Below, in pieces: positions 4,229-63,742 of a DNA stretch of 64,000 nucleotides. Where the stretch lies: positions 192,009 to 256,008 of the forward strand of contig JABFGB010000005.1 in assembly GCA_013112715.1 (NCBI GenBank), written 5' to 3'. The notes below the pieces were generated by a model that did no database searches, was not told where the DNA came from, and was given only the letters and a program-made list of their open reading frames with translations. Every line of letters starts with the position of its first letter. Positions within the stretch are counted from its first letter, which is position 1. Both the position numbers and the translations under genes were made by a program. This DNA is from Chloroflexota bacterium (lineage in GTDB: Bacteria > Chloroflexota > Anaerolineae > Aggregatilineales > J027).

Positions 4229-5251
4229 ATGGATCAGCAATACATTTCTGGTTGTCTCATCGGCATGGCGCTCGGGGATGCTCTCGGCGCAGAAACCGAA
4301 TTTTTGAATATCAAAGGTATCCTCGAAAAATTCCCACCGTATGGCCCACAAGCCCCCGAGGGCAATCCGGCCCTTGTTACTGATGATACCCAAATGGCAA
4401 TCGCGGTTGGAGAGGCAATAATAGCCGCACCCAAGCCGCTTGAACTCAACAGCCTCGCCCTAGAATTTCGCCGCACTTTTTTGGCATGGTATAACGACCC
4501 TGAAAATAATCGCGCCCCAGGCAACACCTGTCTAACTGCCTGCGAGGAAATGTTTAGGGGCAAATCGTGGCTAGAGGCATCACAAATTAGCTCAAAGGGC
4601 TGTGGTGCAAATATGCGGGTCATGCCGGTTGGGGTATTGGATGTGGATACCATCACCCGTGCAGGCATTGCCCAATTACAGGCCGCCATGACACACGGAC
4701 ACCCCACCGGACTGGCTGCCGCTGATTTGACCGCCTTCGTAATTGCGGATTTGGGCAATGGCGGCACACCAAATGATTTACCCAAACGGGTGCGTGACTA
4801 TGCCCTCTCCCAACGCGAAGTCTATCATACCGATTGGCTGGGCGAATTGTGGTACAAAGCGTTTATGCTGCCAACACCGCAGGCCTATATTGCACATGGG
4901 TGGGATGAATGTCTGGGTGTCTTAGATCGGCTAGATATGGCCCTCGAAAAAATGGATCGGGAAACTGATCCCTGCCTAGCAACCGGGGCGGGTTGGGTGG
5001 CAGAACAAGCCTTTGCAACGGCCTTATTCTGTTTTTTGATGTATCCCGACGACCCGATTGCCGTAATTCGCCGAGCCGTCGTCACGAGTGGTGATTCGGA
5101 TTCCATCGCTTGTATCGCTGGGGCGTTCGCTGGAGCTTATCAAGGTATTGATTCGTGGCCCACCGATTGGGTAGAGCGGATTGAGTATCGGGATCGGATT
5201 TTGAATATAGCTAAGGCGCTTTTGAATTCAAGGGAGGAATCAAATGGATGA
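4229..5251 (+). CDS. ADP-ribosylglycohydrolase family protein (DraG/ARH-like)
   Basis: ARH metal-site motifs GMALGDALGAE, VTDDTQMA and TSGDSDSIACIAGAFAGAYQG. Confidence 0.85.
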   Translation: MDQQYISGCLIGMALGDALGAETEFLNIKGILEKFPPYGPQAPEGNPALVTDDTQMAIAVGEAIIAAPKPLELNSLALEFRRTFLAWYNDPENNRAPGNTCLTACEEMFRGKSWLEASQISSKGCGANMRVMPVGVLDVDTITRAGIAQLQAAMTHGHPTGLAAADLTAFVIADLGNGGTPNDLPKRVRDYALSQREVYHTDWLGELWYKAFMLPTPQAYIAHGWDECLGVLDRLDMALEKMDRETDPCLATGAGWVAEQAFATALFCFLMYPDDPIAVIRRAVVTSGDSDSIACIAGAFAGAYQGIDSWPTDWVERIEYRDRILNIAKALLNSREESNG

Positions 5252-6327: not shown

Positions 6328-7200
6328 ATGCGCCTGCCTGTGGGAATTGAAAACGCCTTGCGCGATAAATTCAAAATCGTGCCTAAAGACGTGCAGCCTT
6401 GTGTTGGTGGCGACATTAACCAAGCTGCACAAATTGCCACAGGTGATGGCCTGCTATTCATCAAATGGAATGAAAATGCGCTGTCGGGGATGTTTACCGC
6501 CGAATCAAAGGGATTAAAAATCCTGCGGGATTCCAAAACCCTGCGTGTACCAGAAGTCATCGCGGTGCAGGAGGCCGAGGGCGACACCCCCGCTTTTTTG
6601 GTTTTAGAATGGCTGGAGTCGGGTCAAGCGAATTTGCAGACGCCCGAGCAATTAGGTCAAGGACTCGCCGCGCTGCATCGCCAAACCGCCCCCAAGCATG
6701 GCCTTGACCATGATAATTTTATTGGGTCGCTACTCCAATCGAATACGCAGCATGATTCGTGGGTAACATTTTATGCCGAACAGCGCATCCGCCCCCAAAT
6801 GGAAATCGCTCGTCAAAAAGGGACACTGCGTCCGGGGCGTGAACGCATGTTGGAAGTTTTTTTGGCCCATCTGCCAAAATTGATTCAAGACGCCCCTGCC
6901 AGTTTGCTGCACGGCGATTTGTGGGGCGGCAATGTCATGATTCTCGCCAATCAGCAGCCCGCTGTAATTGACCCCGCCGTGTATTATGGCAACCGCGAAG
7001 TTGAGCTTGCCTTTACTGAATTATTCGGCGGGTTTGCCAAACGCTTCTATGACGCCTATCACGCTGCCTATCCACTTGAACCGGGCTACCCCAGCCGCCG
7101 CGCCCTCTATCAACTGTATCCGTTGATGGTGCATATGAATCTGTTCGGTGGGGGTTATGCCAGTCGTGTTGATTCTATCCTCAGCCAGTATGTAGGGTAA
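6328..7200 (+). CDS. Fructosamine/ketosamine kinase family protein
   Basis: Kinase-fold motif LLHGDLWGGNVM and DPAVYYGNREVELA. Length 290 aa. Adjacency to an LMW-PTP gene is common. Confidence 0.8.
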   Translation: MRLPVGIENALRDKFKIVPKDVQPCVGGDINQAAQIATGDGLLFIKWNENALSGMFTAESKGLKILRDSKTLRVPEVIAVQEAEGDTPAFLVLEWLESGQANLQTPEQLGQGLAALHRQTAPKHGLDHDNFIGSLLQSNTQHDSWVTFYAEQRIRPQMEIARQKGTLRPGRERMLEVFLAHLPKLIQDAPASLLHGDLWGGNVMILANQQPAVIDPAVYYGNREVELAFTELFGGFAKRFYDAYHAAYPLEPGYPSRRALYQLYPLMVHMNLFGGGYASRVDSILSQYVG

Positions 7201-7201
7201 T

Positions 7202-8155
7202 ATGCCAGATCAGCCCACCTGTTCCGTTGTCGTTCCCGTTTATAACAGCGAAGCCACCCTTACCCCATTAATCGAACGTCTCGCCGCTATCCTGCCCACC
7301 ATCGCCCGTCAATTCGAGGTGATTTTGGTCAATGATGGCAGCCGCGATAAAAGCTGGGAAGTAGTAACTCAACTGACCGAAGCCTATTCATGGGTGCATG
7401 GCATCAATTTTATGCGGAATTATGGACAGCATAATGCGTTGTTAGCAGGCATTCGTGCCGCCAGCCATGCCATTATCATCACGATAGATGATGATTTGCA
7501 GCACCCTCCCGAAGAAATTCCGAAATTATTGGCGAAATTGGCCGAGGGCTATGATGTGGTGTATGGCACTCCCGTCCAGCGGCGCGACAAACTATGGCGT
7601 GATCTGGCCTCGCGGATAACACGGCTGGCCCTTGCTACCTCAATGGGCTTTGAGACGGCTCGCCACGCCAGCGCGTTTCGGGCATTCAGGACAGAACTGC
7701 GCATGGCTTTTGCCGATTATCGCAGCCCGGATATGATTCTAGATGTGCTGCTGACATGGGGTACCACCCGCTTTGGGTCGGTCATCGTAGAACATCAGCC
7801 CCGACAGGTGGGAAAATCGAATTACACCCTGCTCAAGCTGCTCAACCACACCCTCAATATGATGACAGGCTTTAGCACATTGCCCCTCCGCATTGCCAGT
7901 TTGACTGGATTTGTGTTCACGATCTTCGGGTTTCTTTTGCTGTTGATTGTGATTAGCGCCTATGCCATTGAAGGCAGTAGCGTACCCGGCTTTCCCTTTC
8001 TAGCCTCCGTCATCACCATCTTCGCCGGGGTGCAGTTGTTTGGCATTGGCATTATTGGCGAATATTTGGGGCGGATTCATTTTCGCAGTATGCACCGCCC
8101 ATCCAGTGTTATCCGCAATACAATTGGATTTGATTCAGGTGATGGAAAAAAATGA
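7202..8155 (+). CDS. GT2 polyprenyl-phosphate glycosyltransferase (ArnC/GtrB-like)
   Basis: SVVVPVYNSE, INDGSRD-like VNDGSRD, ITIDDDLQHPPEEI. Two C-terminal TM helices. Confidence 0.8.
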   Translation: MPDQPTCSVVVPVYNSEATLTPLIERLAAILPTIARQFEVILVNDGSRDKSWEVVTQLTEAYSWVHGINFMRNYGQHNALLAGIRAASHAIIITIDDDLQHPPEEIPKLLAKLAEGYDVVYGTPVQRRDKLWRDLASRITRLALATSMGFETARHASAFRAFRTELRMAFADYRSPDMILDVLLTWGTTRFGSVIVEHQPRQVGKSNYTLLKLLNHTLNMMTGFSTLPLRIASLTGFVFTIFGFLLLLIVISAYAIEGSSVPGFPFLASVITIFAGVQLFGIGIIGEYLGRIHFRSMHRPSSVIRNTIGFDSGDGKK

Positions 8156-8892
8156 AACAGACAGACGGCGTTGCGCTCTCAGCCATTGATGAGGAGCGTT
8201 TTGGAATTCGTGTTGCACGGGCCAATCTTGTCACTGCCGAAACATGGCCCGTCATTATGGATTTTTGTCGGGCCAATCAAGTTAAAATGTTGATTGCCCG
8301 CTGCTATACCTCGGATATTGCTGTTACCCAAGCGATGGAACGAGCGGGTGGTCTATTGATGGATACACTGGTCGTTTTCTCGCGTGATCTCGTGCGCCAT
8401 AAAATTCCCGACAATCCCAATCAGGACATCATACGGCTGATGCGTCCCGGCGATGAGGAACAAATCCGCGAGGTAGCCGCACGGGCATTTGATGGCTATT
8501 CAGGTCATTATCATGCCGACAGCCGCCTTGATAAGGCCAAATGTGATGAGGCGTATATCTCATGGGCCATGCGTTCGTGTGTCTCTAAAGAGATCGCCGA
8601 CGATGTGTATGTGGCGGCGCACGGGGATAAAATTATCGGCTTCATCACCATGCAGTTAAATACTCCCGAAGAAGGACAGGCGACCATTGGCGGAGTTTTG
8701 CCGGAAGCGCAGGGCAAAGGCTTATACCGCTCATTTTTGATTACCGGAATGGAGTGGTTATTGGCAAAACAAGCCGCGACAATGGTGGTCTCAACACAAA
8801 TTACCAATATCGCCGTCCAAAAAGTCTGGGTTCGGTTGGGTTTTGAACCACGTTATGCGTTCTACACCTTCCACAAATGGTTTGATGACTAG
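8152..8892 (+). CDS. GNAT-family N-acetyltransferase
   Basis: 4-nt overlap with the GT2 gene. Acetyl-CoA loop-like EAQGKGLYRSF in the C-terminal half. Confidence 0.6.
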   Translation: MKQTDGVALSAIDEERFGIRVARANLVTAETWPVIMDFCRANQVKMLIARCYTSDIAVTQAMERAGGLLMDTLVVFSRDLVRHKIPDNPNQDIIRLMRPGDEEQIREVAARAFDGYSGHYHADSRLDKAKCDEAYISWAMRSCVSKEIADDVYVAAHGDKIIGFITMQLNTPEEGQATIGGVLPEAQGKGLYRSFLITGMEWLLAKQAATMVVSTQITNIAVQKVWVRLGFEPRYAFYTFHKWFDD

Positions 8893-16733: not shown

Positions 16734-17519
16734 ATGGCCGAGCACAATAATCTGTATCAACGTGCAATCTATTATGATGTGATTTTTGACCGTGACGTAA
16801 GCCGCGAAGTCGAATTCTTGAAAGAAGTCTACCACCAGATCGTAGGCCGTGATCTGCAATCTGTCTTAGATTTGGCCTGTGGGCCGGGGTATCACGCCCG
16901 TGCTTTCGCCAAACAAGGCTATCGCGCCGTAGGGCTTGATTTGCGCCCGGAGATGATCGAATTTGCCCAAGACAAAGCCCGTGAAGTAGGGGCGGTTGTG
17001 GAATGGGTAGCGGCGGACATGACTAATTTCCGTTTAGATCAACCCGTAGATTTCGCATTTTGTATGTTCGACAGCATGGACTGTCTGACTACCAATGAGC
17101 AAATCTTGAATCATTTTCGGGCGATGGGCGATAACCTCACCCATAATGGCTTGTATTTGGTAGATTTAAACCATCCCACAAGTTGCTCCATCGGCGTCTA
17201 TGAGCCGTTTTGTTATGCTGGTCAGCGCGATGGCATCTCTGCCGAAATTCGTTGGGCCGAAACCCCGCCGCAAATTGATATGATCGCAGGCGTGGCACAC
17301 ACCACCCTTGAGATGAGAGTAAAGGATAACGGAAAGGAAATGGTCATTACCGACCATGCCCAAGAGCGACTGCTCACCCCGCAGGAATTGCAGTTGTTCG
17401 CCGAACTTTCTGGTACATTGAAGGTTGTCGGTTGGTATGGTGATTTTGATCTCAACCAGCCTTTTTCAAGTTCACCCCCATCACGACGTATGATCGTCAT
17501 ATTTCAGAAAAGGAGTTAA
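16734..17519 (+). CDS. Class I SAM-dependent methyltransferase
   Basis: Motif I VLDLACGPGYHA and acidic loop GLDLRPEM. Confidence 0.8.
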   Translation: MAEHNNLYQRAIYYDVIFDRDVSREVEFLKEVYHQIVGRDLQSVLDLACGPGYHARAFAKQGYRAVGLDLRPEMIEFAQDKAREVGAVVEWVAADMTNFRLDQPVDFAFCMFDSMDCLTTNEQILNHFRAMGDNLTHNGLYLVDLNHPTSCSIGVYEPFCYAGQRDGISAEIRWAETPPQIDMIAGVAHTTLEMRVKDNGKEMVITDHAQERLLTPQELQLFAELSGTLKVVGWYGDFDLNQPFSSSPPSRRMIVIFQKRS

Positions 17520-17522
17520 TAA

Positions 17523-18065
17523 ATGAACGAACTCGACGACCACCCTAGCTCATACCTCTCACCCAAACTAGAGGGGCGTGTGTTCCCTGAAAAGGGCGGT
17601 CATGGTGCTTTTGCCCGCGAATTGATTCAGGCCGGAGAAGTTATTTCGGTCTGGGGTGGAAAAGCTATGACAAGGGCGGAAGTTGCCCGGCTCAATAATC
17701 CAGCGATAACGACACTTGCCGTCCAGATTGATGAGGACATCTTTCTGGTAACGACGAAGGAGGGTCCCGGCGATTGGGTCAACCATTCGTGCGAGCCAAA
17801 TGCTGGTTTGCAAGGGCAAGTGACTTTAGTCGCCATGCGCGACATTCAACCCGGCGAAGAGGTTTGTTTTGACTATGCCATGACCGATGGGTCAGTATAT
17901 GATGAATTTACCTGCGCCTGTGGATCGCCTAAATGCCGGGGATACGTCAGCGGCAATGATTGGCAAATTCCAGAACTATGGGAACGCTACAACGGGTATT
18001 TTTCACCCTATCTGCAAAAAAGAATTGAGCGTCTCCGCGAAGAAGCAACCGTTTCGGCTGTTTAA
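17523..18065 (+). CDS. SET-domain protein (putative lysine methyltransferase)
   Basis: NHSCEPNA, FDYAMTDG, and post-SET-like Cys cluster CACGSPKCRGY. Confidence 0.8.
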   Translation: MNELDDHPSSYLSPKLEGRVFPEKGGHGAFARELIQAGEVISVWGGKAMTRAEVARLNNPAITTLAVQIDEDIFLVTTKEGPGDWVNHSCEPNAGLQGQVTLVAMRDIQPGEEVCFDYAMTDGSVYDEFTCACGSPKCRGYVSGNDWQIPELWERYNGYFSPYLQKRIERLREEATVSAV

Positions 18066-18075
18066 TGCCTCAAGA

Positions 18076-18110
18076 AAGGGCTGGCATAGGTTTGTCAGCC
18101 CTTCATCTTT
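18076..18110 (+). terminator. Possible intrinsic terminator after the SET gene
   Basis: 8-bp stem aagggctg (18076-18083) / cagccctt (18096-18103), followed by catcttt. Confidence 0.4.
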
Positions 18111-18321
18111 GGCAAATGGCCGATGAGAATGGTTGTGCAAAATACCGAATGTCGCTCAAGAATGGGCTTTTAATCTTACAATAACTTTTTTGACCATTTT
18201 GCACCCAAATTGTATCTATATTGACATTTTGCACTATACGTTGATGGCATTTGTCAATATTGACTAGATTCGTTGAGTTTCTCCCCCTACCTGCCCTATC
18301 ATCTTTAACAATAACCGTAAA

Positions 18322-18500: not shown

Positions 18501-21500
18501 ATGACCATTCCCAACATTCGTACCGACACCCCCCCTGACTCCCCGGATGGCCCAGAACATGACGCCTGTGCGCTTATTATGAGCGTGCGTAAAGGCGGCG
18601 AAAGTACCTATGGAACACTTAAACGCGCTATTCATGCCCTAAGCCACATGGGTCATCGTACTGGCTTTGTCGAAGGGGAAGGTGACGGTGCAGGCATCCA
18701 GACGGACATCCCCCGCCAGTTATGGGGCAAAAAATTAAGCGAAGCTGGTCTCCGTTCCTCCATCGCCACTGATCCACGTTTCTGGGTGGGACACTGCTTT
18801 ATCCCGGCCAATGAAGACTGGCGCGAAATCAGCGAAAGCTTAAATGCCCATTTTAATGATGCGGGTTTAAATCTCCTGATTGCCGAACCGGGGCCAGTTG
18901 TAATGAATGCTTTGGGTCGCCAAGCCCGCCAAAATGCTCCACTATTCATCCAATTAGCGGGTTATGGGGAAACTGCGGATGTGGACAATGTCTTGTTCCG
19001 CGTGCAGTCCGAAGTGGAAAAAATACTGCCGATTCATTTTGCTTCACTAAGTTCGCATGTGGTCGTTTATAAAGTACGCGGCTCAGTCGAAGTGCTGCCT
19101 CGTTTTTATCCTGATTTGCAAGATCGCACTTATTACACCGCAATGGCCTTATGTCATGCGCGTTATTCAACCAATACCGCCTCAAGTTTCGAGCGTGTGC
19201 AGCCCTTCCCACTGATGGGACATAATGGCGAAATCAATACCATTAGCCGTTTTCGCCAAGAAGCCGTGCAGATTGGGGCAGAACTTGACCCCAACAACTC
19301 CGACTCGCAAGATATTGACCGCACCCTCCAAACCCTCTGTGCGAAATATGGTTTAAGCGTTATTGAAGGCCTCGAAATCCTCTTCCCCCCCGTCCCCTTT
19401 GAAGTTGAAAATATGCCCAAACCCCTCCAAGCAGTCTATAACCGTCTGCGTCAGTCCTTTGGGCCATACGCGCAAGGGCCAGCCGCGATCATCGCCCGCT
19501 ATGCGAATATGGCGGTGGTCAGTGTGGATGCCCTCGGTTTGCGGCCTTTATGGTTTGTAGAGACTGAAAAAGAATTTATCTTCAGTTCTGAACGAGGGGT
19601 AGTGCCTCTCGAAAACATGATGTGCGACCCGCGCCCCTTAGCCCCCGGCGAAAAAATGGCGGTGCGGCTCAATCGTGGTAAAAGCGTCGAAGTTTTTGAC
19701 CATGCCGAAATCCGCCAATATGTTATGAAGCAGGCCTTCCAGCGCGAAGTACCCCAATTTGCCGAACGCTACTGGTCGGATTGGAGCAGCTATAGCGTTC
19801 CCGGCGAGGTGCGCACACGGGGGGGAGATGGCGGAGGTGTCGCTCAGTCATTGGCTCAAGCCGAGGTTGCTGTAGACACTGCCCTTATGGAAGTTGCCAC
19901 CCTTGCTGCAACTGTCGAGATGCCATGGCAATACGCCCAAACCCGTGCAGTAGATGCGATAGTCATGGCTGCAACAGGCTGGAACCGCGAACAAATCCAA
20001 GAAATCGAATCGGTGGTAGACACGAGTGGTAAGGATTTGGTTGGCTCATTGGGGCATGACGGGCCATTGGCCGTCTTGAGCAAAAACCGGGTCAACGTAG
20101 CGGATTTCTTTAAAGAAACCGTCGCCGTTGTTACCAACCCCGCCATTGACCGCGAACGTGAAGCTGAGGCCTTTTCGACTCGCATGATTGTTGGGGCACG
20201 TCCTGCCATCGGTGCTGCCCCTCACCCTGATGATATTTTGGTTGTTTTGGAAACCCCCATCTTATCAGGTGGGCATCCCACATTAGGCGACGCCGAATTG
20301 GTACGCGCGGTAGCTGAACCCTATGGCACGATGAGCATCGAAGATTTGCTGGAGCGGTTTGGCAGCCGTGTGGCATGGCTCACGTTGGGTCTCTACCCCG
20401 GCGAAACCACCAATGCCGCCATCAACCGTCTGGCGCACGAAGCCGTCAACGCGGTGCGCTCGGATGTACAATGTCTTGTGTTGGACGATACCCAAACCCT
20501 TGAAGAAAATCTTGGGTGGCTTGATCCCCACTTGGCAGCAGGCGTTATTGACCGCACGCTGCGCGAAGCCGATGATGAACTGAATTTACGACGCCGTGCT
20601 GGGATTGTGGTTCGCAGCGCCAGTATTCGTACCCTACATGATGTCATTCTATTATGTGGCTTGGGGGCCGATGCCGTTAATCCCTATGCGATGTTCGTTG
20701 TGGCGATTGGGGCCGACAAAAAATCCAAGACCCTGACAGGTCAAGATTCCATCAAAGCCCAGCGCACCGTCTTGAAAAATCTAACAGCGGGTTTGGAAAA
20801 AGTGACTTCGACCATTGGCTGTCATGAACTGCGTGGTTATGGCCGCACCTTCAGCAGCATCGGCTTGGCCCCCAGTGTGGCAGGCATGTTGAACACCCCC
20901 AATTATTTCGGCAGCGAAAAGGTCGGCCTGACATGGGAACGCCTTGACCGCGAAGCCGATGAACGTGCCGCCGAATTACGGGGTGAGGCCAAAGCCCAAA
21001 TTGCGCGTGTAGACCGCTTCTACCCCAAATTCTGGAAAAAAGCCGAAGCGGTGGCACATGGCGAAATGTCGCTGGATGAATTTATCGAGATGTACCGCAA
21101 TCTCAAAGAAGAAGTGCCGATTGCGCTGCGCCATATCATTGAAATCAAGCATCTGACCGACAGCATCTCCCCTGAGCATGTCGAAATCGGCGTAGATATT
21201 CATGATATGCCCCTGTTGATTAGCGCCATGTCGTTCGGGTCGCAGGGGGAATTGGCCTATCGTGCTTATGCCGAAGCCGCCAAGCGCCTGAACATTGTCT
21301 GTGTCAACGGCGAGGGCGGTGAATTGCCCGATTTGATGAATCGCTATCATAACAATCGTGGTCAGCAGGTCGCGTCCGGACGCTTCGGTGTCAACGCGGA
21401 ATTTTTGAACTCCGCCTATGTGATTGAAATTAAGATTGGGCAAGGTGCAAAGCCCGGTGAAGGTGGAATGCTGCCCGCGTCAAAGGTCAGCCCACAGGTT

Positions 21501-23153
21501 GCCGAAGCCCGCCACACTACCCCCTACGTCGCCTTGATTTCGCCGTCCAACAATCACGACCTATATTCGATTGAAGACCTTGCCCAACTGATTGAAGAAC
21601 TCAAGACCGTCAATCCCGAAGCCAAAGTGTCGGTCAAAGTACCTGTCGTGCCGGGAATCGGGGTCATCGCGGTTGGGGTCGCCAAAGCCGGGGCCGATAT
21701 TATCAATCTGACCGGGTACGATGGCGCAACCGGGGCCGCCCGTCGTCATTCGCTGCAATATGTCGGCCTCCCGACAGAAATCGGTATCATTCAGGCTCAC
21801 CGCGCTCTGATTGAATCTGGCCTGCGTCATCGTGTCGAGTTGTGGTGTGATGGTGGTATGAAGACGGGCAGTGACGCCGTCAAGATGATTTTGCTCGGCG
21901 CGAATCGGATTGGATTTGCGACAATGGCGATGGTAGCGATTGGCTGTACCATCTGTCGTAAATGTCATGAAGGAACGTGTCATGTCGGTATCACCACCCA
22001 TATCAAGACGGTGGAAGAAGCTACCGAAAAAGGCCTCAAGAGTTTTGTCCCCCGCGATTATGACCTCGCTGTTGACGGAATTGTCCGTGTATTTAATGTC
22101 ATAGCCGATGAGATGCGGCGTTTGACCGCACAGCTTGGTTCAACCTGCCTGCAAGACTTGGTGGGACGTGCCGATTTGTTGGAACAAGTAGCGGGTCTGG
22201 ATATGGTAGACCTCTCGGCCATGCTCTACCACATGCCTATGAAACCCCGCTTGCTTTCCGAACCCGGCATTGGTCGCCGTCTGACCCGTCCACGCAACAG
22301 CTTGACTCACACGATTAGTAACCTCATTCTGAATGCAGTGCAAGATGGGGAACAAGAAGCCACCTATGAAGATGAGGTTATGGCCTATGACCGCGCACTG
22401 GGCGGTTATCTGGCAGGTGAACTTGTCCGTAATCCACGTATTGCCCAACGGCTCAATTGTGCTCACCTCAATTTCGGCCCATCCTCGATTGCCGGCAATG
22501 GTTTTGCAGCGTGGACAACCGACCAACTCGATATTTTTATCGAAGGCGGGGCACAGGACGGTGTAGCCAAAAGCGCCAATGGCGGACGAGTAGTGGTCAT
22601 GAAAGGCCTAAACCATAAAGGTACGCGCTTGGATGGCAGTGTGGGTAAGAGTTTTGCCTATGGCGCACAACGCGGCCTATTGATTGTGCAAGGCAATGCC
22701 GATTCCCGTGCTTGTATCCGCCTATCCGGTGCAGATGTCATCTTTGGGGGCGAAATCACCGAACCGCTGGATGATTCCAGTGTCAATGTCGGCACCCGCG
22801 CCAATCTCAAAGGCTTCGCGTGTGAATACATGACCTCCGGACGGGTCATCATCATGGGTGATCCCGGCCCCTATGCTTTCGCGGGGATGACAGGTGGCAC
22901 GGTCTATCAGCAGCTCACCCCCGAAATGGGCTTTGATGAAAATACGCTGCGCCGTCGTTTTGCCAAAGGTGCAACCGTCACCATTCAGCCATTGGACGAG
23001 AGTGACATCACCCAACTGCGCGATTTGTTCGGCTACTATGTTGAGGCCCTTGAACAAACGGCCCAAATCGAAGAGGCTGACCGGATTGTTGCACTCATGG
23101 AACCAGCTACATTGGCCCGCCGCTTTGTGAAGGTCGTTCCCGTGAGGAATTAG
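18501..23153 (+). CDS. gltB: Glutamate synthase, large-subunit/Fd-GOGAT-type single polypeptide
   Basis: Ntn-amidotransferase Cys after a short propeptide (DACALIM). FMN domain (VASGRFGV, KIGQGAKPGEGG, YSIEDLAQLIEELK). 3Fe-4S Cys motif (CTICRKCHEGTC). C-terminal GXGXG beta-helix domain. No gltD small subunit nearby. Confidence 0.9.
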   Translation: MTIPNIRTDTPPDSPDGPEHDACALIMSVRKGGESTYGTLKRAIHALSHMGHRTGFVEGEGDGAGIQTDIPRQLWGKKLSEAGLRSSIATDPRFWVGHCFIPANEDWREISESLNAHFNDAGLNLLIAEPGPVVMNALGRQARQNAPLFIQLAGYGETADVDNVLFRVQSEVEKILPIHFASLSSHVVVYKVRGSVEVLPRFYPDLQDRTYYTAMALCHARYSTNTASSFERVQPFPLMGHNGEINTISRFRQEAVQIGAELDPNNSDSQDIDRTLQTLCAKYGLSVIEGLEILFPPVPFEVENMPKPLQAVYNRLRQSFGPYAQGPAAIIARYANMAVVSVDALGLRPLWFVETEKEFIFSSERGVVPLENMMCDPRPLAPGEKMAVRLNRGKSVEVFDHAEIRQYVMKQAFQREVPQFAERYWSDWSSYSVPGEVRTRGGDGGGVAQSLAQAEVAVDTALMEVATLAATVEMPWQYAQTRAVDAIVMAATGWNREQIQEIESVVDTSGKDLVGSLGHDGPLAVLSKNRVNVADFFKETVAVVTNPAIDREREAEAFSTRMIVGARPAIGAAPHPDDILVVLETPILSGGHPTLGDAELVRAVAEPYGTMSIEDLLERFGSRVAWLTLGLYPGETTNAAINRLAHEAVNAVRSDVQCLVLDDTQTLEENLGWLDPHLAAGVIDRTLREADDELNLRRRAGIVVRSASIRTLHDVILLCGLGADAVNPYAMFVVAIGADKKSKTLTGQDSIKAQRTVLKNLTAGLEKVTSTIGCHELRGYGRTFSSIGLAPSVAGMLNTPNYFGSEKVGLTWERLDREADERAAELRGEAKAQIARVDRFYPKFWKKAEAVAHGEMSLDEFIEMYRNLKEEVPIALRHIIEIKHLTDSISPEHVEIGVDIHDMPLLISAMSFGSQGELAYRAYAEAAKRLNIVCVNGEGGELPDLMNRYHNNRGQQVASGRFGVNAEFLNSAYVIEIKIGQGAKPGEGGMLPASKVSPQVAEARHTTPYVALISPSNNHDLYSIEDLAQLIEELKTVNPEAKVSVKVPVVPGIGVIAVGVAKAGADIINLTGYDGATGAARRHSLQYVGLPTEIGIIQAHRALIESGLRHRVELWCDGGMKTGSDAVKMILLGANRIGFATMAMVAIGCTICRKCHEGTCHVGITTHIKTVEEATEKGLKSFVPRDYDLAVDGIVRVFNVIADEMRRLTAQLGSTCLQDLVGRADLLEQVAGLDMVDLSAMLYHMPMKPRLLSEPGIGRRLTRPRNSLTHTISNLILNAVQDGEQEATYEDEVMAYDRALGGYLAGELVRNPRIAQRLNCAHLNFGPSSIAGNGFAAWTTDQLDIFIEGGAQDGVAKSANGGRVVVMKGLNHKGTRLDGSVGKSFAYGAQRGLLIVQGNADSRACIRLSGADVIFGGEITEPLDDSSVNVGTRANLKGFACEYMTSGRVIIMGDPGPYAFAGMTGGTVYQQLTPEMGFDENTLRRRFAKGATVTIQPLDESDITQLRDLFGYYVEALEQTAQIEEADRIVALMEPATLARRFVKVVPVRN

Positions 23154-23191
23154 GAAATTTCCTGAATCCACAAAATTCTAATACTCAGGAC

Positions 23192-23228
23192 TTGCCCATT
23201 GTATATCTTAGATGTGATGGGCATTTTT
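23192..23228 (+). terminator. Weak terminator-like hairpin after gltB
   Basis: tgcccat (23193-23199) / atgggca (23216-23222), followed by tttttgt. The loop is long (16 nt). Confidence 0.3.
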
Positions 23229-23371
23229 GTATTCTGGAAGGAAAACTATCTCAAATAAAAGTTACTTTCACCTTTATTCGATTTGTTTTCACAATTTTTT
23301 TGAATTATGATAAATGTCCTAAAATCCATACGGACATGATAGAAATTTGTGAAGAAAATCGGTAAGCAGGA

Positions 23372-24172
23372 ATGAAACACCATATATTTTTGAGCTATAG
23401 TCGAGAAGATATATTAATCGTGAACTTGATCAGGGATGATTTCGAGAAAGAAGGCTTCACTGTCTGGACTGATCAGCACATAAAACCCGGAGATTCTTCT
23501 TGGATCAAGCAAATACAAAAAGCCATTGAAGATAGTGGATGCGTTGTTGTCATAATGACCCCTGAAGCTAAAAATTCGGAATGGGTAGAAAAAGAAATTG
23601 AATATGCTCAGGCCCTCGATCGGCCTATCATACCGTTACTTGCAAGAGGGAATAAGGCAACAGCAGTACCGGTAGCTATTATAACCTCTCAGCATATTGA
23701 TATTAAGGAGAATCGCATTGGTGCCATACGTAGAGCATCAAATACTATTAGAGAACTTCTCAATCTTCCACCCAAACCTGAAGATTTAGCTGGATTTTGG
23801 GCAAGCAATACAGATGATTATTTCTCTTTACAGGAAGGAAAAACACTTAGAGAACTATGGGAAAATATTACGAAAGATTCTGGAATTATAATAATCCTTG
23901 ATGAAAAGCATAAATTAGTTGGCATGATAAGTATAGGAGATTTGCTCAAACGTCTGTTAGAAGAAGATTTGAGTGAAAACACCCCAATAAAGCGCCTTAT
24001 GGTACCTAAGTCAAAAATAAAGCATGTAAAAGAAACCAGTACGATGAGCGAAGTTCATAGGCTAATTGCGAACTTCGAAATCGATCAAGTACCTGTGTTA
24101 AATGAAAATGATGAGTTAACGGGTGTTGTAACAAAAAGTGAGGTGGCTGCATGGTTTAGAAAAAACCGCTGA
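23372..24172 (+). CDS. TIR domain - CBS pair (Bateman) fusion protein
   Basis: N-terminal HIFLSYSREDI...FTVWTD...VVVIMTPEAKNSEWVEKEIEYA fits a TIR_2-like fold with the conserved W...E glutamate. The C-terminal half has two CBS-like repeats (IIILDEKHKLVGMISIGDLL and IDQVPVLNENDELTGVVTKSEV). Sample lines count 28-38% GC versus ~53% in flanking gltB. Confidence 0.75.
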   Translation: MKHHIFLSYSREDILIVNLIRDDFEKEGFTVWTDQHIKPGDSSWIKQIQKAIEDSGCVVVIMTPEAKNSEWVEKEIEYAQALDRPIIPLLARGNKATAVPVAIITSQHIDIKENRIGAIRRASNTIRELLNLPPKPEDLAGFWASNTDDYFSLQEGKTLRELWENITKDSGIIIILDEKHKLVGMISIGDLLKRLLEEDLSENTPIKRLMVPKSKIKHVKETSTMSEVHRLIANFEIDQVPVLNENDELTGVVTKSEVAAWFRKNR

Positions 24173-24284
24173 AATAATAACTTTGATATCCTCGACCCTG
24201 ATAAGCACATCCCTCAAATTTGTGTACAATATTCACCGACGCCGTAGCTCAAAAACCTTTGCGGCTTTGTGTGGAGAATCTTGC

Positions 24285-26942
24285 ATGAAAAAATGCACTT
24301 TAATGATGGGAGTCTTGCTCCTGCTGCTGACCGTTTCGGGCGTAACCTTTGCTATGCCCCGTCACCAAGCCCCGCCAGAGCCAATTGCCTATGGGGATAC
24401 CGCAACAGGCAGCATTAGTGAAATTCAAACCGAAGCGCGTTATGTGATCGAGGCCACACAGGGAGATCGTTTGGTTGCCATCGCTTCGACCACCAACGGC
24501 GATCTTGACCCCTATTTAAATCTGACTTCAGTTGAAGGTACGCTGCTGGCGAGTGACGATAACAGCGGTGGTGGGACAGTGGCTCAAATCACCTTTGTTG
24601 TTCCAGCGAGCGCGGCTTATTTAATTGTGGTGACGCGCTCACCCGAAGGTGCAGGCAATACGACAGGCGACTTTGAATTAACGGTGACCAATGCCGCCGC
24701 ACCCGTTGCTACCGAAGTGACCCCTGAAGTAGAAATTCCGACCTCGACTCCTGCCACTACCTCCAACACCGCCCGTTTACAGCCACTCCAATCCGGCACG
24801 CCAACGCGGGGTAGTGTGGATACAAGCAGCACCTTTAATCTGTACTGGTTTGAAGGCACAGCCGGGCAGGAAATTAGTCTTTCGCCAGATACCACCAGCC
24901 CCTTGCAGCCCTTATTGGTACTCTATCGGGCCGACTTCAGCGAAATTCTACGCGCCCAACCGGGCCAAGTTCTAAGTGCCACCTTAGAGGACAACAGCAT
25001 CTATTTTGTTGCGGCAGCACAGGTCGAACCCGGCAGCAGCGGCGAGTATGCCTTTACCTTTGACAATGGCACGGGTGACACTGGCTCGGCCATTGACCGC
25101 GATTTCCTGTTGTATGGTCAAAATATCAGCGGCAGTGTTTCCAATACCACACCCACCACTCGTTTCCGTTTTCGGGCCGAGGCGGGGGATGCCGTCACCA
25201 TCAATATGAATGCCATCAGCGGCGATTTGGACAGCTATCTTTTATTAGTAGATTCCAGCGGCAGCACCATCGCGGAAGACGATAACAGCGGTGGCAATGG
25301 CGATGCCCAAATTAGCACGACCATGCCGACCAGCGGAGAATTTTTCATTATTGCCACTCGCTTAGGTCAAGCCCAAGGGGTGACGACAGGTGAATTTTTG
25401 TTGGCCCTGATTTCCGATGCCCCACCGCGTTTGCCCCAAGCGACCCCGCCAACCCTGCCCACTGAATATGCTGAATTCCCACGCCTGACCTATGGCGAAA
25501 GTGCTGAGGGCGAAATTAGCAATGCCGTATTCCTAACCGTCTATGTTTTTGAGGGGCGAGCCGGGGATAACGTGAATATTGTGATGCAGGCCACCGGGGG
25601 CAATCTGGACAGCTATATGGTGCTGCTGGATGATGCACGCATCCCGCTACAGGACGCTGATGACATCAGTGAAACCAACAAAAATGCTCAATTGCAATTT
25701 ACCCTGCCACGTGACGCTTTTTATGCCATTGTCGCCACCCGCTTCGATCAAGGAGAGGGAACAACGGAAGGCACTTTTGAACTCAGCCTTGACCTTGCCT
25801 CCAACGATCAAGCCCCCGGCAATCCTGTTATAGATAGGCTAGTGACCGAACGCTTGGCGGCGGGCGACACTCCCTCCGGCACCTTTGAACCACTGCGTTT
25901 CGCCAGTCTCTATTCCTTCACCGCCGTTGAAAATTCACTCATAGATTTTGCCGTGACCGCCGACGGGGGCGAAACTGGCACGTTGATTTTGACGGATGCC
26001 TTCTTGAATCCCATCAGCGTCTCCAACAACGGTGTTCTATTGGCGATTCCAGCCCCAGTGAGTGGCGACTATCTGGTCATTGTAGCCCCCCAAGCTGGCC
26101 CTGCCGCAAATATTTCCGGCGGCTTTTTTGTGGCGTTGAATGCAGGCGTAGGGGAAACCGATACCCCGCCTGAAGACGGTAATACTACAACAGGCGGCAC
26201 GGCTGCCCCTGTTGCCATCGCCTATGGCACAACCGTGCGTGGACGTATTACCGAAGATGTCACCGCCGAACAGTATGTCTTTCAGGGGCGGGGCGGCGAT
26301 ATTGTAGATATTTCCATGACCTCCGATGGCCCAGATATTCTGGATTGCTTCCTGCAACTGCTGGATGCAAACGGGGATGTCATCGAAGAAAACGACGACA
26401 TTGACCCCGGCGTTATTCGTGATTCGCTCATTACCGCCACCTTGCCGAGTGATGGTCAATATACGATTGTCGCTACCCATTTTGAAGACCCGACGGGGCA
26501 AGTTGAGCAGACCTTTGGCAACTATACGCTCACATTAGCCTATCGTGACCCCACCACCGCAGGCGTTGACCGAGAAGCACGGGCTATCAGTTTTGACCAA
26601 AGCCTTAGCGACACGATTGATGCCGATACCTATCTGTATTTCTACTATTTCACGGGCACGCAGGGGGATACTATCACCATTACAGTGGATACCACCGAGG
26701 GGAATCTAGACCCGATTCTCTATCTTTACACCTATGATTCGGCTAATCAACCGCGCCTGCTGACGGCGAATGACGATAGTCCCTTAGGTAGTACATATGA
26801 CCCGTACATTGAATACCGCCTGCCACGTACCGGAACCTATCTGATTGCCGTCACGCGCTATGCCGAAACCGCCGCCGAGCCAACCAGCGGGTCGTATACC
26901 ATTACCCTACAAAATCTGGGGGCAGGCTCCACTAGCCAGTAG
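24285..26942 (+). CDS. Secreted protein of ~7 tandem PPC-like (pre-peptidase C-terminal type) repeats
   Basis: Signal peptide MKKCTLMMGVLLLLLTVSGVTFA at ATG 24285. Recurrent ~110-aa unit contains G[DN]LD[PS]YL.L.D..G...A.DDNSGG...A.I...P..G.Y.I.ATR...G.T.G.F.L. No catalytic domain is recognisable. Confidence 0.65.
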   Translation: MKKCTLMMGVLLLLLTVSGVTFAMPRHQAPPEPIAYGDTATGSISEIQTEARYVIEATQGDRLVAIASTTNGDLDPYLNLTSVEGTLLASDDNSGGGTVAQITFVVPASAAYLIVVTRSPEGAGNTTGDFELTVTNAAAPVATEVTPEVEIPTSTPATTSNTARLQPLQSGTPTRGSVDTSSTFNLYWFEGTAGQEISLSPDTTSPLQPLLVLYRADFSEILRAQPGQVLSATLEDNSIYFVAAAQVEPGSSGEYAFTFDNGTGDTGSAIDRDFLLYGQNISGSVSNTTPTTRFRFRAEAGDAVTINMNAISGDLDSYLLLVDSSGSTIAEDDNSGGNGDAQISTTMPTSGEFFIIATRLGQAQGVTTGEFLLALISDAPPRLPQATPPTLPTEYAEFPRLTYGESAEGEISNAVFLTVYVFEGRAGDNVNIVMQATGGNLDSYMVLLDDARIPLQDADDISETNKNAQLQFTLPRDAFYAIVATRFDQGEGTTEGTFELSLDLASNDQAPGNPVIDRLVTERLAAGDTPSGTFEPLRFASLYSFTAVENSLIDFAVTADGGETGTLILTDAFLNPISVSNNGVLLAIPAPVSGDYLVIVAPQAGPAANISGGFFVALNAGVGETDTPPEDGNTTTGGTAAPVAIAYGTTVRGRITEDVTAEQYVFQGRGGDIVDISMTSDGPDILDCFLQLLDANGDVIEENDDIDPGVIRDSLITATLPSDGQYTIVATHFEDPTGQVEQTFGNYTLTLAYRDPTTAGVDREARAISFDQSLSDTIDADTYLYFYYFTGTQGDTITITVDTTEGNLDPILYLYTYDSANQPRLLTANDDSPLGSTYDPYIEYRLPRTGTYLIAVTRYAETAAEPTSGSYTITLQNLGAGSTSQ

Positions 26943-26952
26943 AACGGGTCGT

Positions 26953-28422
26953 ATGCGAAAGGCACTGTTTTTTATTACCCTGCTGTTGATAATCTCAGGC
27001 TATACACCTGCCTATAGCGATTCGTATCGGCAGCAGGGAGATCAACTCCCCTTTGGAGAGACCGTGACAGGTGAGATTACGAGCGAGGAATTTCGCCAGT
27101 TATATACATTCTCCGGCAATGAGGGGCAGGTGATCGCCATTCGCATGACCCGCGTGGAGGGTGATCTTGATCCGGTGGTGCTTCTCATGAATACCAACGG
27201 CGTCGTTTTGGGCTATAGTGACGATGAGGACGAAGGCCGCAATGCCCTGATTAGCTCCCAGCGCCTCCCCGCCAATGGCACTTATGTGGTGATTGCCACA
27301 CGCTTTGGGCACGAGCATGGCAACACGACAGGCACATACGAAATCCGCATGGACAGTCTTGGCGCAACGGCTTCCAGCGGCTCTAGCCTGAATCTAGGTA
27401 CGTCTATTGTGGGGGAAATCACCAACGAACGGCATGAGGTCATCTACACGTTTCAGGCCGAACGTGGGCAGGTCATCAATATTTATATGAAACGCACCAG
27501 TGGCAATCTTGACCCCCTCTTGGATTTGTTCGATGCCAGCGGCGGCTATCTCATCAGTGGCGATGACGACCCGAATTCCTACGGCAGTCTTAACGCCGCG
27601 ATTCTGAACTTTATGATTCCCAACAACGGGAGTTATATCATTCGGGCGACGCGCTGGGGCTATGATGCGGGTACAAGTTCGGGGAGTTTCTTGATTGAAC
27701 TGACGGAAATCCCGCCTGAAACATTGGGGACACGCCCCACCAATGCTCGCTTCATGGCCTATGATGACACCGTAGCCTCGCAAATTGATAATGAAATCTC
27801 CATCCGCTTCTTTCAATTTGATGCCACACGCGGGGATGTGATTTCCGCCGTCGCCAGCCGTGAAACAGGCAACATCTCCCCTCAACTGAGCCTACTCTAT
27901 ATGGATTTACGCCCGATCAGCGTGGGCACAACCGGTTCGGGCCAAGAGGAATCGCGTATTAGTGCGACCATTCCCGAAAATGGACGCTATTTGTTGGCGG
28001 TCTCCCGTTTTCGCGGCGCAGAGGGTACATCCGAAGGAGAGTTTTCGTTAACCCTAATTGGCCGACAGGGTATCGGCGGCGGAGATGCCCTCGAAATTGT
28101 CTACGAGGCGCAGGTGACAGGCATCATTGACAGTGCCCACGCCTCCGAAACCTACATTTTTCTAGGCGAGGAGGGTGATTTAGTCACCATCACCATGCAG
28201 CGCTTGGATGGTAATCTCGATTGCCTACTGACGCTGCAAGATGAAACAGGCAAGCAGTTGATTTTTAATGACGATATTGAACAGGGAGTGGTGCAAGATT
28301 CAAGAATTTCCCGCTTTCGTCTGCCTGCCGATGGCCTCTATCGTATCGAAGCCTCCCGTTTTGACCGCATCGCAGGCACAACCAGCGGGGCCTATTCCCT
28401 GACCCTTGTGAAAGAGAATTAG
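26953..28422 (+). CDS. Secreted protein of ~4 tandem PPC-like repeats
   Basis: Signal peptide MRKALFFITLLLIISGYTPAYS at ATG 26953. Repeats contain VEGDLDPVVLL, TSGNLDPLLDL, ETGNISPQLSL and LDGNLDCLLTL. Confidence 0.65.
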   Translation: MRKALFFITLLLIISGYTPAYSDSYRQQGDQLPFGETVTGEITSEEFRQLYTFSGNEGQVIAIRMTRVEGDLDPVVLLMNTNGVVLGYSDDEDEGRNALISSQRLPANGTYVVIATRFGHEHGNTTGTYEIRMDSLGATASSGSSLNLGTSIVGEITNERHEVIYTFQAERGQVINIYMKRTSGNLDPLLDLFDASGGYLISGDDDPNSYGSLNAAILNFMIPNNGSYIIRATRWGYDAGTSSGSFLIELTEIPPETLGTRPTNARFMAYDDTVASQIDNEISIRFFQFDATRGDVISAVASRETGNISPQLSLLYMDLRPISVGTTGSGQEESRISATIPENGRYLLAVSRFRGAEGTSEGEFSLTLIGRQGIGGGDALEIVYEAQVTGIIDSAHASETYIFLGEEGDLVTITMQRLDGNLDCLLTLQDETGKQLIFNDDIEQGVVQDSRISRFRLPADGLYRIEASRFDRIAGTTSGAYSLTLVKEN

Positions 28423-62752: not shown

Positions 62753-63742
62753 GTGGGTCATCTTTTTATCAGTTATAGCAAAAAAGATATAGATTTCGCT
62801 CGTAACCTGAAAAAATCTTTGAACGATGCAGGTTTCGATGTTTGGATGGACGAGTCGGAAATTCATCCGGGTCAAGTCTGGGATGATGTTCTTCAACAAA
62901 ATGTCTTGAGTAGTTCTGCTTTATTGGTAGTGATGTCCTCAAATTCTCGCAAATCAGATTGGGTGAAAAATGAAGTTGAATTAGCACGGGAAAAGAAAAT
63001 TCCGATCTTCCCGATTTTGTTAGAGGGTGAGGTCTGGTTTGGGCTTCGACATCTTCAATATGAGGATATGCGCGATCAAGAAAAAACAGTCAAACTCTCT
63101 ATAGAATTTACTGTCAGTTTACGCCAAACGACCTCTGACAAAGGCCATATTCCTTCAACGCCAAAGACAAATCGCCGTATTCGACTTAATGAACCCTGGG
63201 CTATTATTATTGCAGCCCTCATAAGCGGAATATGCCTCATTATTGCCGCATTAATTGCGCTTGGCGATAACAATGACAACGAGAAATCTGAATCTACTCC
63301 ACCGCAAATTGTAGAAGCGACCACTACCGTTGCTCAAACTGTATCGCCATCCAGTACACCCACCAGCACGCCGACTGCCTCTGCCACAACATCCAATATT
63401 CCTACCCAAACAAACGCCGCGACGACGATTTTTACTTCCATACCTACCGAAAGTTCGATTTTAACCACAACTGCCCCCACGACCATCGCCTATCCATGCG
63501 AGGGTCAGATTGTAGATGCTGGTTCGTATGTGACTTCACTCAATGTGGTACGCATTAGTCCATCTCCTGATGCACGATTACGTCCACCTGTCAAAGTTGG
63601 TGATGTAGTGACGATAGAGGCAAAAGAGGGAGAAACAATAGCAAATACCTGGTATCAAATAACCTATGAAGGCCCGAATGGGAGTATTTCGGGCTGGATA
63701 CCCGATGAATATCTAGCTCTATCTGAAAACTGCCCTAAATAA
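62753..63742 (+). CDS. TIR, TM, S/T-rich linker, SH3b-like domain protein
   Basis: HLFISYSKKDI...FDVWMDE...LLVVMSSNSRKSDWVKNEVELA is TIR_2-like with the conserved W...E. TM helix WAIIIAALISGICLIIAALIAL. T/S/P linker. C-terminal LNVVRISPSP...WYQITYEG..GSISGWIPDEYL is SH3b-like. Confidence 0.75.
   Translation: MGHLFISYSKKDIDFARNLKKSLNDAGFDVWMDESEIHPGQVWDDVLQQNVLSSSALLVVMSSNSRKSDWVKNEVELAREKKIPIFPILLEGEVWFGLRHLQYEDMRDQEKTVKLSIEFTVSLRQTTSDKGHIPSTPKTNRRIRLNEPWAIIIAALISGICLIIAALIALGDNNDNEKSESTPPQIVEATTTVAQTVSPSSTPTSTPTASATTSNIPTQTNAATTIFTSIPTESSILTTTAPTTIAYPCEGQIVDAGSYVTSLNVVRISPSPDARLRPPVKVGDVVTIEAKEGETIANTWYQITYEGPNGSISGWIPDEYLALSENCPK

Follow-up and report, generated by a model that had tools for sequence, protein, structure and literature searches.

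NAD+-cleaving TIR domains constitute an immune effector common to bacteria, plants, and animals. What switches these enzymes on is, for each of them, the principal question still to be answered. The switches known from bacteria comprise cyclic-oligonucleotide sensors (SAVED, STING, and CARF domains), Argonaute, and direct sensing of the ThsB type. Whether a further kind of sensor can serve as such a switch is the question raised by a gene in a 64,000-nucleotide stretch of DNA from an uncultured Chloroflexota bacterium of the Anaerolineae (GenBank assembly GCA_013112715.1, contig JABFGB010000005.1, positions 192,009 to 256,008 of the forward strand; the whole stretch is referred to as the window and numbered from its first letter). 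The gene encodes a protein of 266 amino acids (aa), here termed TIR-CBS, in which an N-terminal TIR domain is followed by a C-terminal pair of CBS domains. By its sequence, the protein belongs to the TIR_2 and CBS domain families and joins two modules not previously seen together. It may represent a self-contained, single-polypeptide TIR NAD+ glycohydrolase (NADase) whose activity would be set by its own CBS pair, a reading to which we give slightly less than an even chance. The principle of a sensor fused to a TIR or another suicide effector is already established by DS-11, Cat1, TIR-SAVED, and TIR-STING.

Identity of the TIR-CBS gene

An initial annotation, made from the DNA letters alone, had placed the open reading frame (ORF) at 23372-24172, and the gene occupies exactly these positions on the forward strand. 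A TAA codon lies in frame 9 nt (three codons) upstream of the ATG, which is therefore the earliest possible start. The start codon is considered sound, since the encoded N-terminus, MKHHIFLSYS, resembles those of the closest relatives (MSHHIFLSYS in P0003, a TIR protein described below). The protein is an exact match to the NCBI entry 'BroJett018_14090, Chloroflexota bacterium', and the Logan assemblies of six SRA runs encode an identical protein, with unchanged surroundings in every case where neighbouring genes can be seen. The recovery of the same protein from an NCBI metagenome-assembled genome and from six SRA-run assemblies shows that the fusion is not an assembly artefact.

The N-terminal TIR domain and its putative active site

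The TIR domain proposed in the initial annotation is recovered by Pfam TIR_2 (PF13676), which matches aa 5-113 with E=1.2e-23 and 84.4 bits against a cut-off of 28. The query was aligned with 25 TIR relatives, two stand-alone CBS proteins, and the CBS pair of the CorC protein encoded in the window itself, and from these 29 rows an AlphaFold2 (AF2) model was computed. Its predicted local distance difference test (pLDDT) score is mostly above 90 over aa 1-130; a model built from the single sequence was discarded (pLDDT 39). When the predicted structure was compared with the PDB by Foldseek, a probability of 1.00 was obtained for the TIR domains of SARM1, SPARTA TIR-APAZ, AbTir, BtTir, RPP1, and TRR-2, with target-normalised TM scores of 0.64-0.82 for isolated TIR-domain targets. 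These values support a flavodoxin-like TIR fold close to that of enzymatic TIR domains. The best structural neighbours of the model are catalytically active TIR domains, which was counted in favour of NADase activity. Searches of PDB sequences with phmmer likewise align the N-terminal half with Cat1, TLR1, BtTir, and PdTIR.

The protein contains the motif NSEWVEKEIEYA, in which E75 is the glutamate of an S-x-W-x-x-x-E pattern. In HMMER alignments, E75 is placed opposite the 'EL' glutamate of Cat1, BtTir, and TLR1. The NADase pocket of Cat1 is lined by S7, D33, S68, and E74, and the mutants N10A, D33A, S68A, and E74A are defective, with D33A, S68A, and E74A abolishing Cat1 function (PMC12162218). 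Since the HMMER alignment to Cat1 runs without gaps across query residues 5 to 84 at an offset of one, the query residues S8, D34, S69, and E75 correspond to these four pocket residues. The glutamate that the initial annotation had taken to be catalytic thus sits at the position of Cat1 E74. In an alignment of 107 single-TIR members of the clade to which the query's TIR domain belongs, no exception is seen at S8 and S69, and conservation at D34, W71, and E75 is at least 90%; all five residues are invariant in the 15 closest members. As judged from the protein sequence, the active-site residues are intact: the putative catalytic glutamate in helix alpha-C and the pocket residues are all present, as expected of an enzymatic TIR domain.

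The C-terminal CBS pair

A short proline-rich linker, over part of which the model is of low confidence (pLDDT below 50 at aa 142-148), connects the TIR domain to the C-terminal half. The latter had been read as a CBS pair in the initial annotation, and Pfam CBS (PF00571) finds two stretches in it (E=2.2e-16, 60.4 bits, cut-off 24). Neither of the two CBS motifs is truncated. In addition, the entire CBS pair of MgtE (2yvy) is covered by a phmmer alignment with aa 136-258 (E=3.6e-7), and Foldseek matches the cytosolic CBS domain of MgtE with ATP (5x9g). The ribose-phosphate motif of CBS domains takes the form G-h-h-S/T-x-x-D/N, and the corresponding segment of the first CBS domain, GMISIGD (G184 to D190), appears to fit it. 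The NCBIfam matches of the CBS half are generic and below threshold—CcpN at 41 bits, CbpB at 33 bits, MgtE, IMPDH, and DS-11 at 22.7 bits—and the ligand is therefore not assignable from them.

A rare domain combination

The initial annotation had not recognised the architecture among named TIR defence systems, and no second example was found in the libraries searched. A phmmer scan of 1.84 billion cluster representatives returned 22,902 matches, and the best 150 of these, which were examined, all cover the TIR half only; fusions scoring below about 107 bits fall outside this set. A close orthologue would have ranked at the top, as its TIR domain (about 110 bits) and its CBS pair would both have contributed to the score; the 1.84-billion library therefore holds no close TIR-CBS orthologue. 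When the CBS half was run with phmmer against all 170 retrieved proteins, only the query matched. Word-index searches of 5.8 billion clusters returned no other TIR-CBS protein, even with a chimeric profile that favours this architecture (30 clade TIR domains, each joined to the CBS half of the query). This profile found only TIR-only proteins and two stand-alone CBS proteins of 150 aa. No CBS ORF was present in 80 further TIR-clade loci from JGI metagenomes, and searches of phages, plasmids, and IMG/VR gave either nothing or separate TIR or CBS matches. A metagenome scan with the CBS half likewise retrieved no relative, either of the CBS half or of the protein as a whole, and no description of a TIR-CBS fusion came up in full-text searches of the literature.

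The TIR clade itself is found with many partners. In its 107 single-TIR members, the TIR domain is combined with, among others, REC (6), FGE-sulfatase (5), HEAT (5), Ser/Thr kinase (3), TPR (3), FHA (2), SIR2_2 (2), and Ras-like GTPase (2), while CBS occurs in the query only. Such free swapping of partners is as expected of an effector module that is joined to interchangeable sensors. The closest TIR relative, P0003 (283 aa, from JGI), shares 56% identity and a near-identical SEWVEKEIEYA...IIPLLxRGNKAT segment with TIR-CBS; its C-terminal domain of about 150 aa has no Pfam match and by eye resembles a Roadblock/LC7-type sensor. An unusual architecture is displayed by P0026, P0028, P0031, and P0094, giant proteins of 1,773-2,330 aa with 5-7 tandem TIR-clade domains.

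The negative outcome of these searches, together with the lack of close relatives of the CBS half, would also be in keeping with a recent and inert chimera, in which a TIR and a CBS module were joined by a recombination accident in horizontally acquired DNA and which has not yet been purged. This possibility is considered very unlikely. Nothing interrupts the reading frame, each domain clears its Pfam cut-off by a wide margin and retains all key residues, and the linker between them is short and clean; moreover, the gene is identical in two strains whose shared sequence diverges by about 0.7% across 20.8 kb, a statistically weak point.

A single-gene cassette of probable horizontal origin

The gene is strongly shifted toward AT, as had been estimated by hand in the initial annotation: its GC content is 0.378 and its GC content at third codon positions (GC3) 0.315, as compared with 0.536 and 0.549 in gltB, its upstream neighbour. 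The 800-nt segment of lowest GC content in the entire 64 kb (0.357; mean 0.513, standard deviation 0.032) lies on the upstream spacer and the 5′ half of the gene. Loci of relatives were retrieved with the C-terminal 349 aa of GltB as a probe, which yielded 80 loci from Anaerolineae/Chloroflexota. The five closest by GltB aa identity are L007 (CFX5, 99%), L008 and L009 (97%), L010 (94%), and L011 (89%). In all five of these genus-level relatives, gltB is followed by the same two genes for secreted PPC (pre-peptidase C-terminal) repeat proteins as in the window, and in none of the five (tblastn) is a TIR-CBS protein encoded. Homology to these loci, as detected by blastn, ends at window position 23152, the gltB stop codon, and restarts at 24204. 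The intervening cassette has a GC content of 0.363, as compared with 0.51 for the window.

The slot between gltB and the PPC genes holds different sequences in the relatives. It contains a gene for a membrane-anchored PD40 beta-propeller protein in L007 (451 aa, 7080-8435, minus strand) and in L009 (432 aa, 7084-8382, minus strand), a 166-aa remnant of the PD40 gene in L008 (7080-7580, minus strand), an unrelated orphan ORF of 116 aa in L011 (7168-7518, plus strand), and merely 105 nt in L010 (7050-7154). The slot is thus a strain-variable single-gene site with identical breakpoints. Horizontal acquisition of the cassette, first suspected from its composition, is strongly supported by its absence from this very slot in close relatives that keep both flanks. 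Two TIR-clade genes elsewhere have a GC content like that of their hosts (0.649 against 0.644 and 0.551 against 0.56), so the AT shift is a mark of foreign origin rather than a trait of the family. In its absence from relatives with conserved flanks and its deviant composition, the gene behaves as an accessory gene. No integrase or transposase was found at the locus, and inspection of the flanks for repeats, direct or inverted, of the kind left by att sites or target-site duplications returned just short matches at chance level. Exchange of the slot may have occurred by homologous recombination via the conserved flanks.

Within the cassette, gltB is followed by a terminator-like hairpin and T-run (Table 1), and different hairpins stand at the equivalent place in the relatives. 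Because of this hairpin, TIR-CBS is probably transcribed from a promoter of its own within the AT-rich spacer at 23234-23371, a region in which no sigma-70-like promoter was recognised, promoter-like sites being no more numerous than in shuffled sequence. No Rfam family matches in or around the cassette. A 57-aa ORF upstream of TIR-CBS (23192-23365) overlaps the hairpin and was judged spurious.

At the distal border of the cassette, upstream of the first PPC gene, the element AGCACATCCC(T/C)CAAATTTGTGTACAAT occupies window positions 24204-24235 (in L007, for example, 8403-8429). It is nearly identical in 5/5 relatives, even where its flanks are only about 75% identical, and is preceded in the relatives by a conserved CGTAGGGCAAGTCGCC that has been lost from the window. 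This element may serve the PPC genes as a promoter or operator. Over window positions 13372-34172, a second strain (L002/L003, from SRR19543874/5) differs at 145 of 20,801 positions (about 0.7%). The differences are strongly clumped—for example, 32 in 17372-18171, 29 in 21372-22171, and 26 in 24572-25371—and look like recombination patches rather than clock-like divergence. No single-nucleotide polymorphism separates the TIR-CBS genes of the two strains; this was rejected as evidence of selection or of a sweep, as difference-free tracts of 1-2 kb are common.

Neighbouring genes and the search for a partner

The gene stands isolated between housekeeping and secreted-protein genes, as originally described, with gltB upstream and the two PPC-repeat genes downstream. 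Within 10 kb, the upstream side encodes a dCMP deaminase, a CNNM/CorC protein, HolB, a methyltransferase, a SET-domain protein, and GltB. The downstream side encodes the two PPC-repeat proteins, which are 26-28% identical to each other, followed by ABATE/zf-CGNR, an MFS transporter, AzlCD, MoxR-DUF58, and a spermine-synthase-like gene. The initial annotation had noted that the window contains no ThsA, STING, Argonaute, or CBASS partner. This was borne out when 48 ORFs of the window, a set that did not include gltB itself, were scanned against PADLOC and Pfam: no ThsA, SAVED, STING, CD-NTase, Argonaute, or cas gene and no Thoeris, CBASS, Pycsar, or CRISPR component was found among them. No conserved partner lies beside TIR-CBS or beside three of its clade relatives, which are likewise solitary genes. 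PADLOC matches elsewhere in the window (mad2/3/8, AriA, and PD-T4-6) were set aside as most likely generic ones to the five ABC-type ATPases and the Ser/Thr kinase of the window. An ADP-ribosylglycohydrolase gene (PF03747, 216 bits) at 4229-5251 (plus strand), 18 kb upstream of TIR-CBS, is probably an unrelated housekeeping gene and is mentioned here as the products of TIR enzymes are ADP-ribose derivatives.

Table 1. Features of the TIR-CBS locus, in window coordinates
Feature	Position	Strand	Description
Strain-specific AT-rich cassette	23153..24203	.	1,051 nt, GC 0.363; fills the gltB-PPC intergenic slot
Terminator-like hairpin and T-run after gltB	23193..23233	+	Inside the cassette; 12-bp stem, 4 G-C pairs, then TTTTTGTATT
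TIR-CBS gene	23372..24172	+	From the ORF list; 266 aa
TIR domain, aa 1-130	23372..23761	+	Pfam TIR_2; AF2 model; Foldseek
E75 codon, putative catalytic glutamate	23594..23596	+	Glutamate of S-x-W-x-x-x-E; aligned to Cat1 E74
Short Pro-rich linker, aa 131-146	23762..23809	+	NLPPKPEDLAGFWASN; in the model, follows the final TIR helix and precedes the first CBS strand
CBS pair (Bateman module), aa 147-262	23810..24157	+	Pfam CBS x2; CBS1 about aa 148-198, CBS2 about aa 204-262
Two adjacent secreted PPC-repeat proteins	24288-26942, 26950-28422	+	Conserved in 5/5 relatives

The lack of a partner bears on a possible role of TIR-CBS as a signal generator similar to ThsB, the TIR protein of Thoeris systems. 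The protein passes the cut-off of Pfam ThsB_TIR (37.8 bits against 21.2) and is matched by several ThsB models of PADLOC, and its best NCBIfam match, albeit a weak one, is the Thoeris type III protein ThcB4 (41 bits, far under the cut-off of 220). In PADLOC as a whole, the best match is the SAVED_TIR model, which aligns with the TIR part only, as does PycTIR. Upon a trigger perceived by its CBS pair, TIR-CBS might then produce a cyclic ADP-ribose isomer or another messenger derived from ADP-ribose for an effector encoded elsewhere in the genome, and cyclising TIR domains do use the same catalytic residues. ThsB proteins, however, have no CBS domains, and TIR-CBS lacks a ThsA partner and does not belong to Thoeris: no ThsA-like gene (SIR2 or Macro with SLOG) is present in the cassette or within 10 kb on either side, and neither such a gene nor another receptor is found in the 64-kb window or beside the clade relatives. 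Moreover, the cassette comprises one gene only and, if moving horizontally, would arrive without its receptor. In view of these points and of the low ThcB4 score, a role as signal generator appears distinctly unlikely.

A second solitary TIR gene was found at window positions 62753-63742 (plus strand). It encodes a protein of 329 aa with TIR_2 at aa 5-109 (87.5 bits), 34% identical to the TIR domain of TIR-CBS, and a C-terminal part of about 200 aa devoid of Pfam domains. This gene is AT-shifted as well (GC 0.436, GC3 0.367) and follows a divergent GNAT gene after a spacer of about 400 nt. The 64 kb thus hold two foreign-looking genes with an N-terminal TIR domain.

The surroundings have also to be considered in the light of a physiological rather than an immune function. 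TIR-CBS could be an NAD-turnover enzyme responsive to energy or nucleotides, or a non-enzymatic TIR adaptor, acting in dormancy, stress, or filament-level cell fate in a multicellular Chloroflexota bacterium. CBS pairs mostly regulate metabolic enzymes and transporters, in line with the matches to CcpN, CbpB, IMPDH, and MgtE; the gene resides among housekeeping genes; members of its TIR clade carry classical signalling modules, REC, FHA, Ser/Thr kinase, and Ras-like GTPase among them; and the second solitary TIR gene suggests a large paralogous signalling repertoire. Nevertheless, absence from all five genus-level relatives and a foreign composition fit an accessory or conflict gene better, and the active-site residues are fully retained. 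A physiological regulator is thus held to be unlikely. By contrast, the autonomy of the gene, which has no partner nearby, and its behaviour as an accessory gene were counted in favour of a self-contained effector.

Comparison with known sensor-effector proteins

Among characterized proteins, Cat1 (CRISPR-associated TIR 1, a TIR-CARF protein; PDB 9mud) is most readily compared with TIR-CBS. It is of similar size (263 aa against about 265 aa) and shares the same order of an N-terminal TIR domain and a C-terminal nucleotide sensor, which in Cat1 dimerises. Cat1 is also the best PDB sequence match for the TIR half, although the two TIR domains share little identity (24.8 bits). The NADase site of Cat1 is created by TIR-TIR stacking, which is driven by the binding of its ligand (PMC12162218). 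The two proteins differ in their sensors, in that the CARF domain of Cat1 binds cyclic tetra-adenylate (cA4) made by Cas10, whereas TIR-CBS bears a CBS pair, and in their contexts: Cat1 genes reside in type III CRISPR loci, whereas neither a CRISPR locus nor a cyclase is found near TIR-CBS.

TIR-SAVED, TSR1, and TIR-STING, which are effectors of CBASS and of type III CRISPR systems, similarly consist of a TIR NADase fused to a C-terminal nucleotide sensor and are activated for NAD+ cleavage by ligand-induced oligomerisation. That a dimeric TIR effector can work is shown by TSR1 (bioRxiv 10.64898/2026.09.16.751991). In contrast to TIR-CBS, these proteins rely on SAVED or STING domains which bind cyclic oligonucleotides from an adjacent cyclase. 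With a CBS pair as its C-terminal half and no cyclase or cas genes in the window, TIR-CBS does not belong to the CBASS, Pycsar, or type III CRISPR effectors.

A CBS sensor on a defence protein is exemplified by DS-11 (NCBIfam NF053863), a validated single-protein CBS-HEPN anti-phage system (bioRxiv 10.1101/2025.01.08.631726). A mutant altered in the adenine contact of the CBS domain loses defence, and its authors propose that the effector is regulated by an adenine derivative bound to the CBS domain; before DS-11, according to the same authors, no defence system with a CBS domain had been characterized (bioRxiv 10.1101/2025.01.08.631726). DS-11 combines, in one polypeptide, a CBS module for adenosyl binding and dimerisation with an effector that depends on dimerisation, and TIR-CBS may do likewise. 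However, the effector of DS-11 is a HEPN RNase rather than a TIR domain, and TIR-CBS is no member of the DS-11 family: it scores 22.7 bits against a cut-off of 260, on one generic CBS motif, and contains no HEPN domain according to Pfam.

With SARM1, the likeness resides in the TIR domains, those of SARM1 being the top structural neighbours of the TIR domain of TIR-CBS in Foldseek. SARM1 is a TIR NADase restrained by a metabolite sensor in cis, which reads the ratio of nicotinamide mononucleotide (NMN) to NAD+ rather than a second messenger. In contrast to TIR-CBS, it is a eukaryotic protein with an ARM-repeat sensor and an octameric scaffold of SAM domains, and its identity to the query is just 16-18%.

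Proposed mechanism

CBS pairs bind adenosyl ligands and form dimeric discs that change their geometry upon binding, and TIR NADases possess a composite active site that forms only upon TIR-TIR association, as in Cat1. On the basis of these properties, ligand occupancy would control TIR association and hence NAD+ cleavage. The CBS pair of TIR-CBS would dimerise, as CBS pairs generally do, and would bind an adenosyl ligand, which may be ATP, ADP, AMP, S-adenosylmethionine, cyclic di-AMP, or an NAD derivative, or else some unknown signal. Phage infection or energy collapse, for instance, could change the occupancy and re-orient the CBS dimer, thereby bringing the N-terminal TIR domains into contact, which would complete the composite NADase site. 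The ensuing depletion of NAD+ would then arrest or kill whichever cell of the filament is infected or damaged. By analogy, this logic would match that of Cat1, TIR-SAVED, TIR-STING, SARM1, and DS-11, but the sensor would be of a type that had not been seen on a TIR domain before.

A number of observations weigh against this mechanism. TLR1, a non-enzymatic scaffolding TIR protein with no known NADase activity, keeps the aligned glutamate as well (HMMER), and the conserved residue is thus necessary but not sufficient for catalysis. In the second CBS domain, the segment GVVTKSE (G251 to E257) carries a glutamate where the canonical ribose-binding aspartate or asparagine would be expected. The CBS half is modelled by AF2 with moderate confidence only (pLDDT 45-75), so that neither the ligand nor the dimer geometry is readable from the model. 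The gene lies outside any defence island, among housekeeping and secreted-protein genes. Finally, the proposal is based on one sequence of an uncultured organism. As a singleton in the searched libraries, the architecture offers no comparison in which selection for the fusion would show, and the gene could be a recent, possibly non-functional chimera.

Implications for TIR-mediated immunity

In its most far-reaching form, the proposal states that TIR-CBS is the first TIR NADase wired directly to a CBS module: a bacterial counterpart of SARM1 that would need neither a cyclase of its own nor a partner to read the adenylate or energy state or an unknown adenosyl alarm molecule. It would cause NAD+ collapse in a filamentous multicellular bacterium and travel between strains as a one-gene cassette. 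This full version is put forward tentatively and is, as a whole, rather unlikely. The significance of the finding is also tempered by the fact that one natural example is known, from an uncultured organism. If true, a CBS-gated TIR domain would extend the switches already known by one that responds to ordinary adenosyl metabolites or to a new messenger. As an autonomous protein of 266 aa, TIR-CBS would be a compact model for the control of TIR active-site assembly by a dimeric sensor. It would parallel SARM1 in neurons as well as the newly validated DS-11, and CBS pairs would then emerge as a general input of abortive-infection effectors that has been overlooked.

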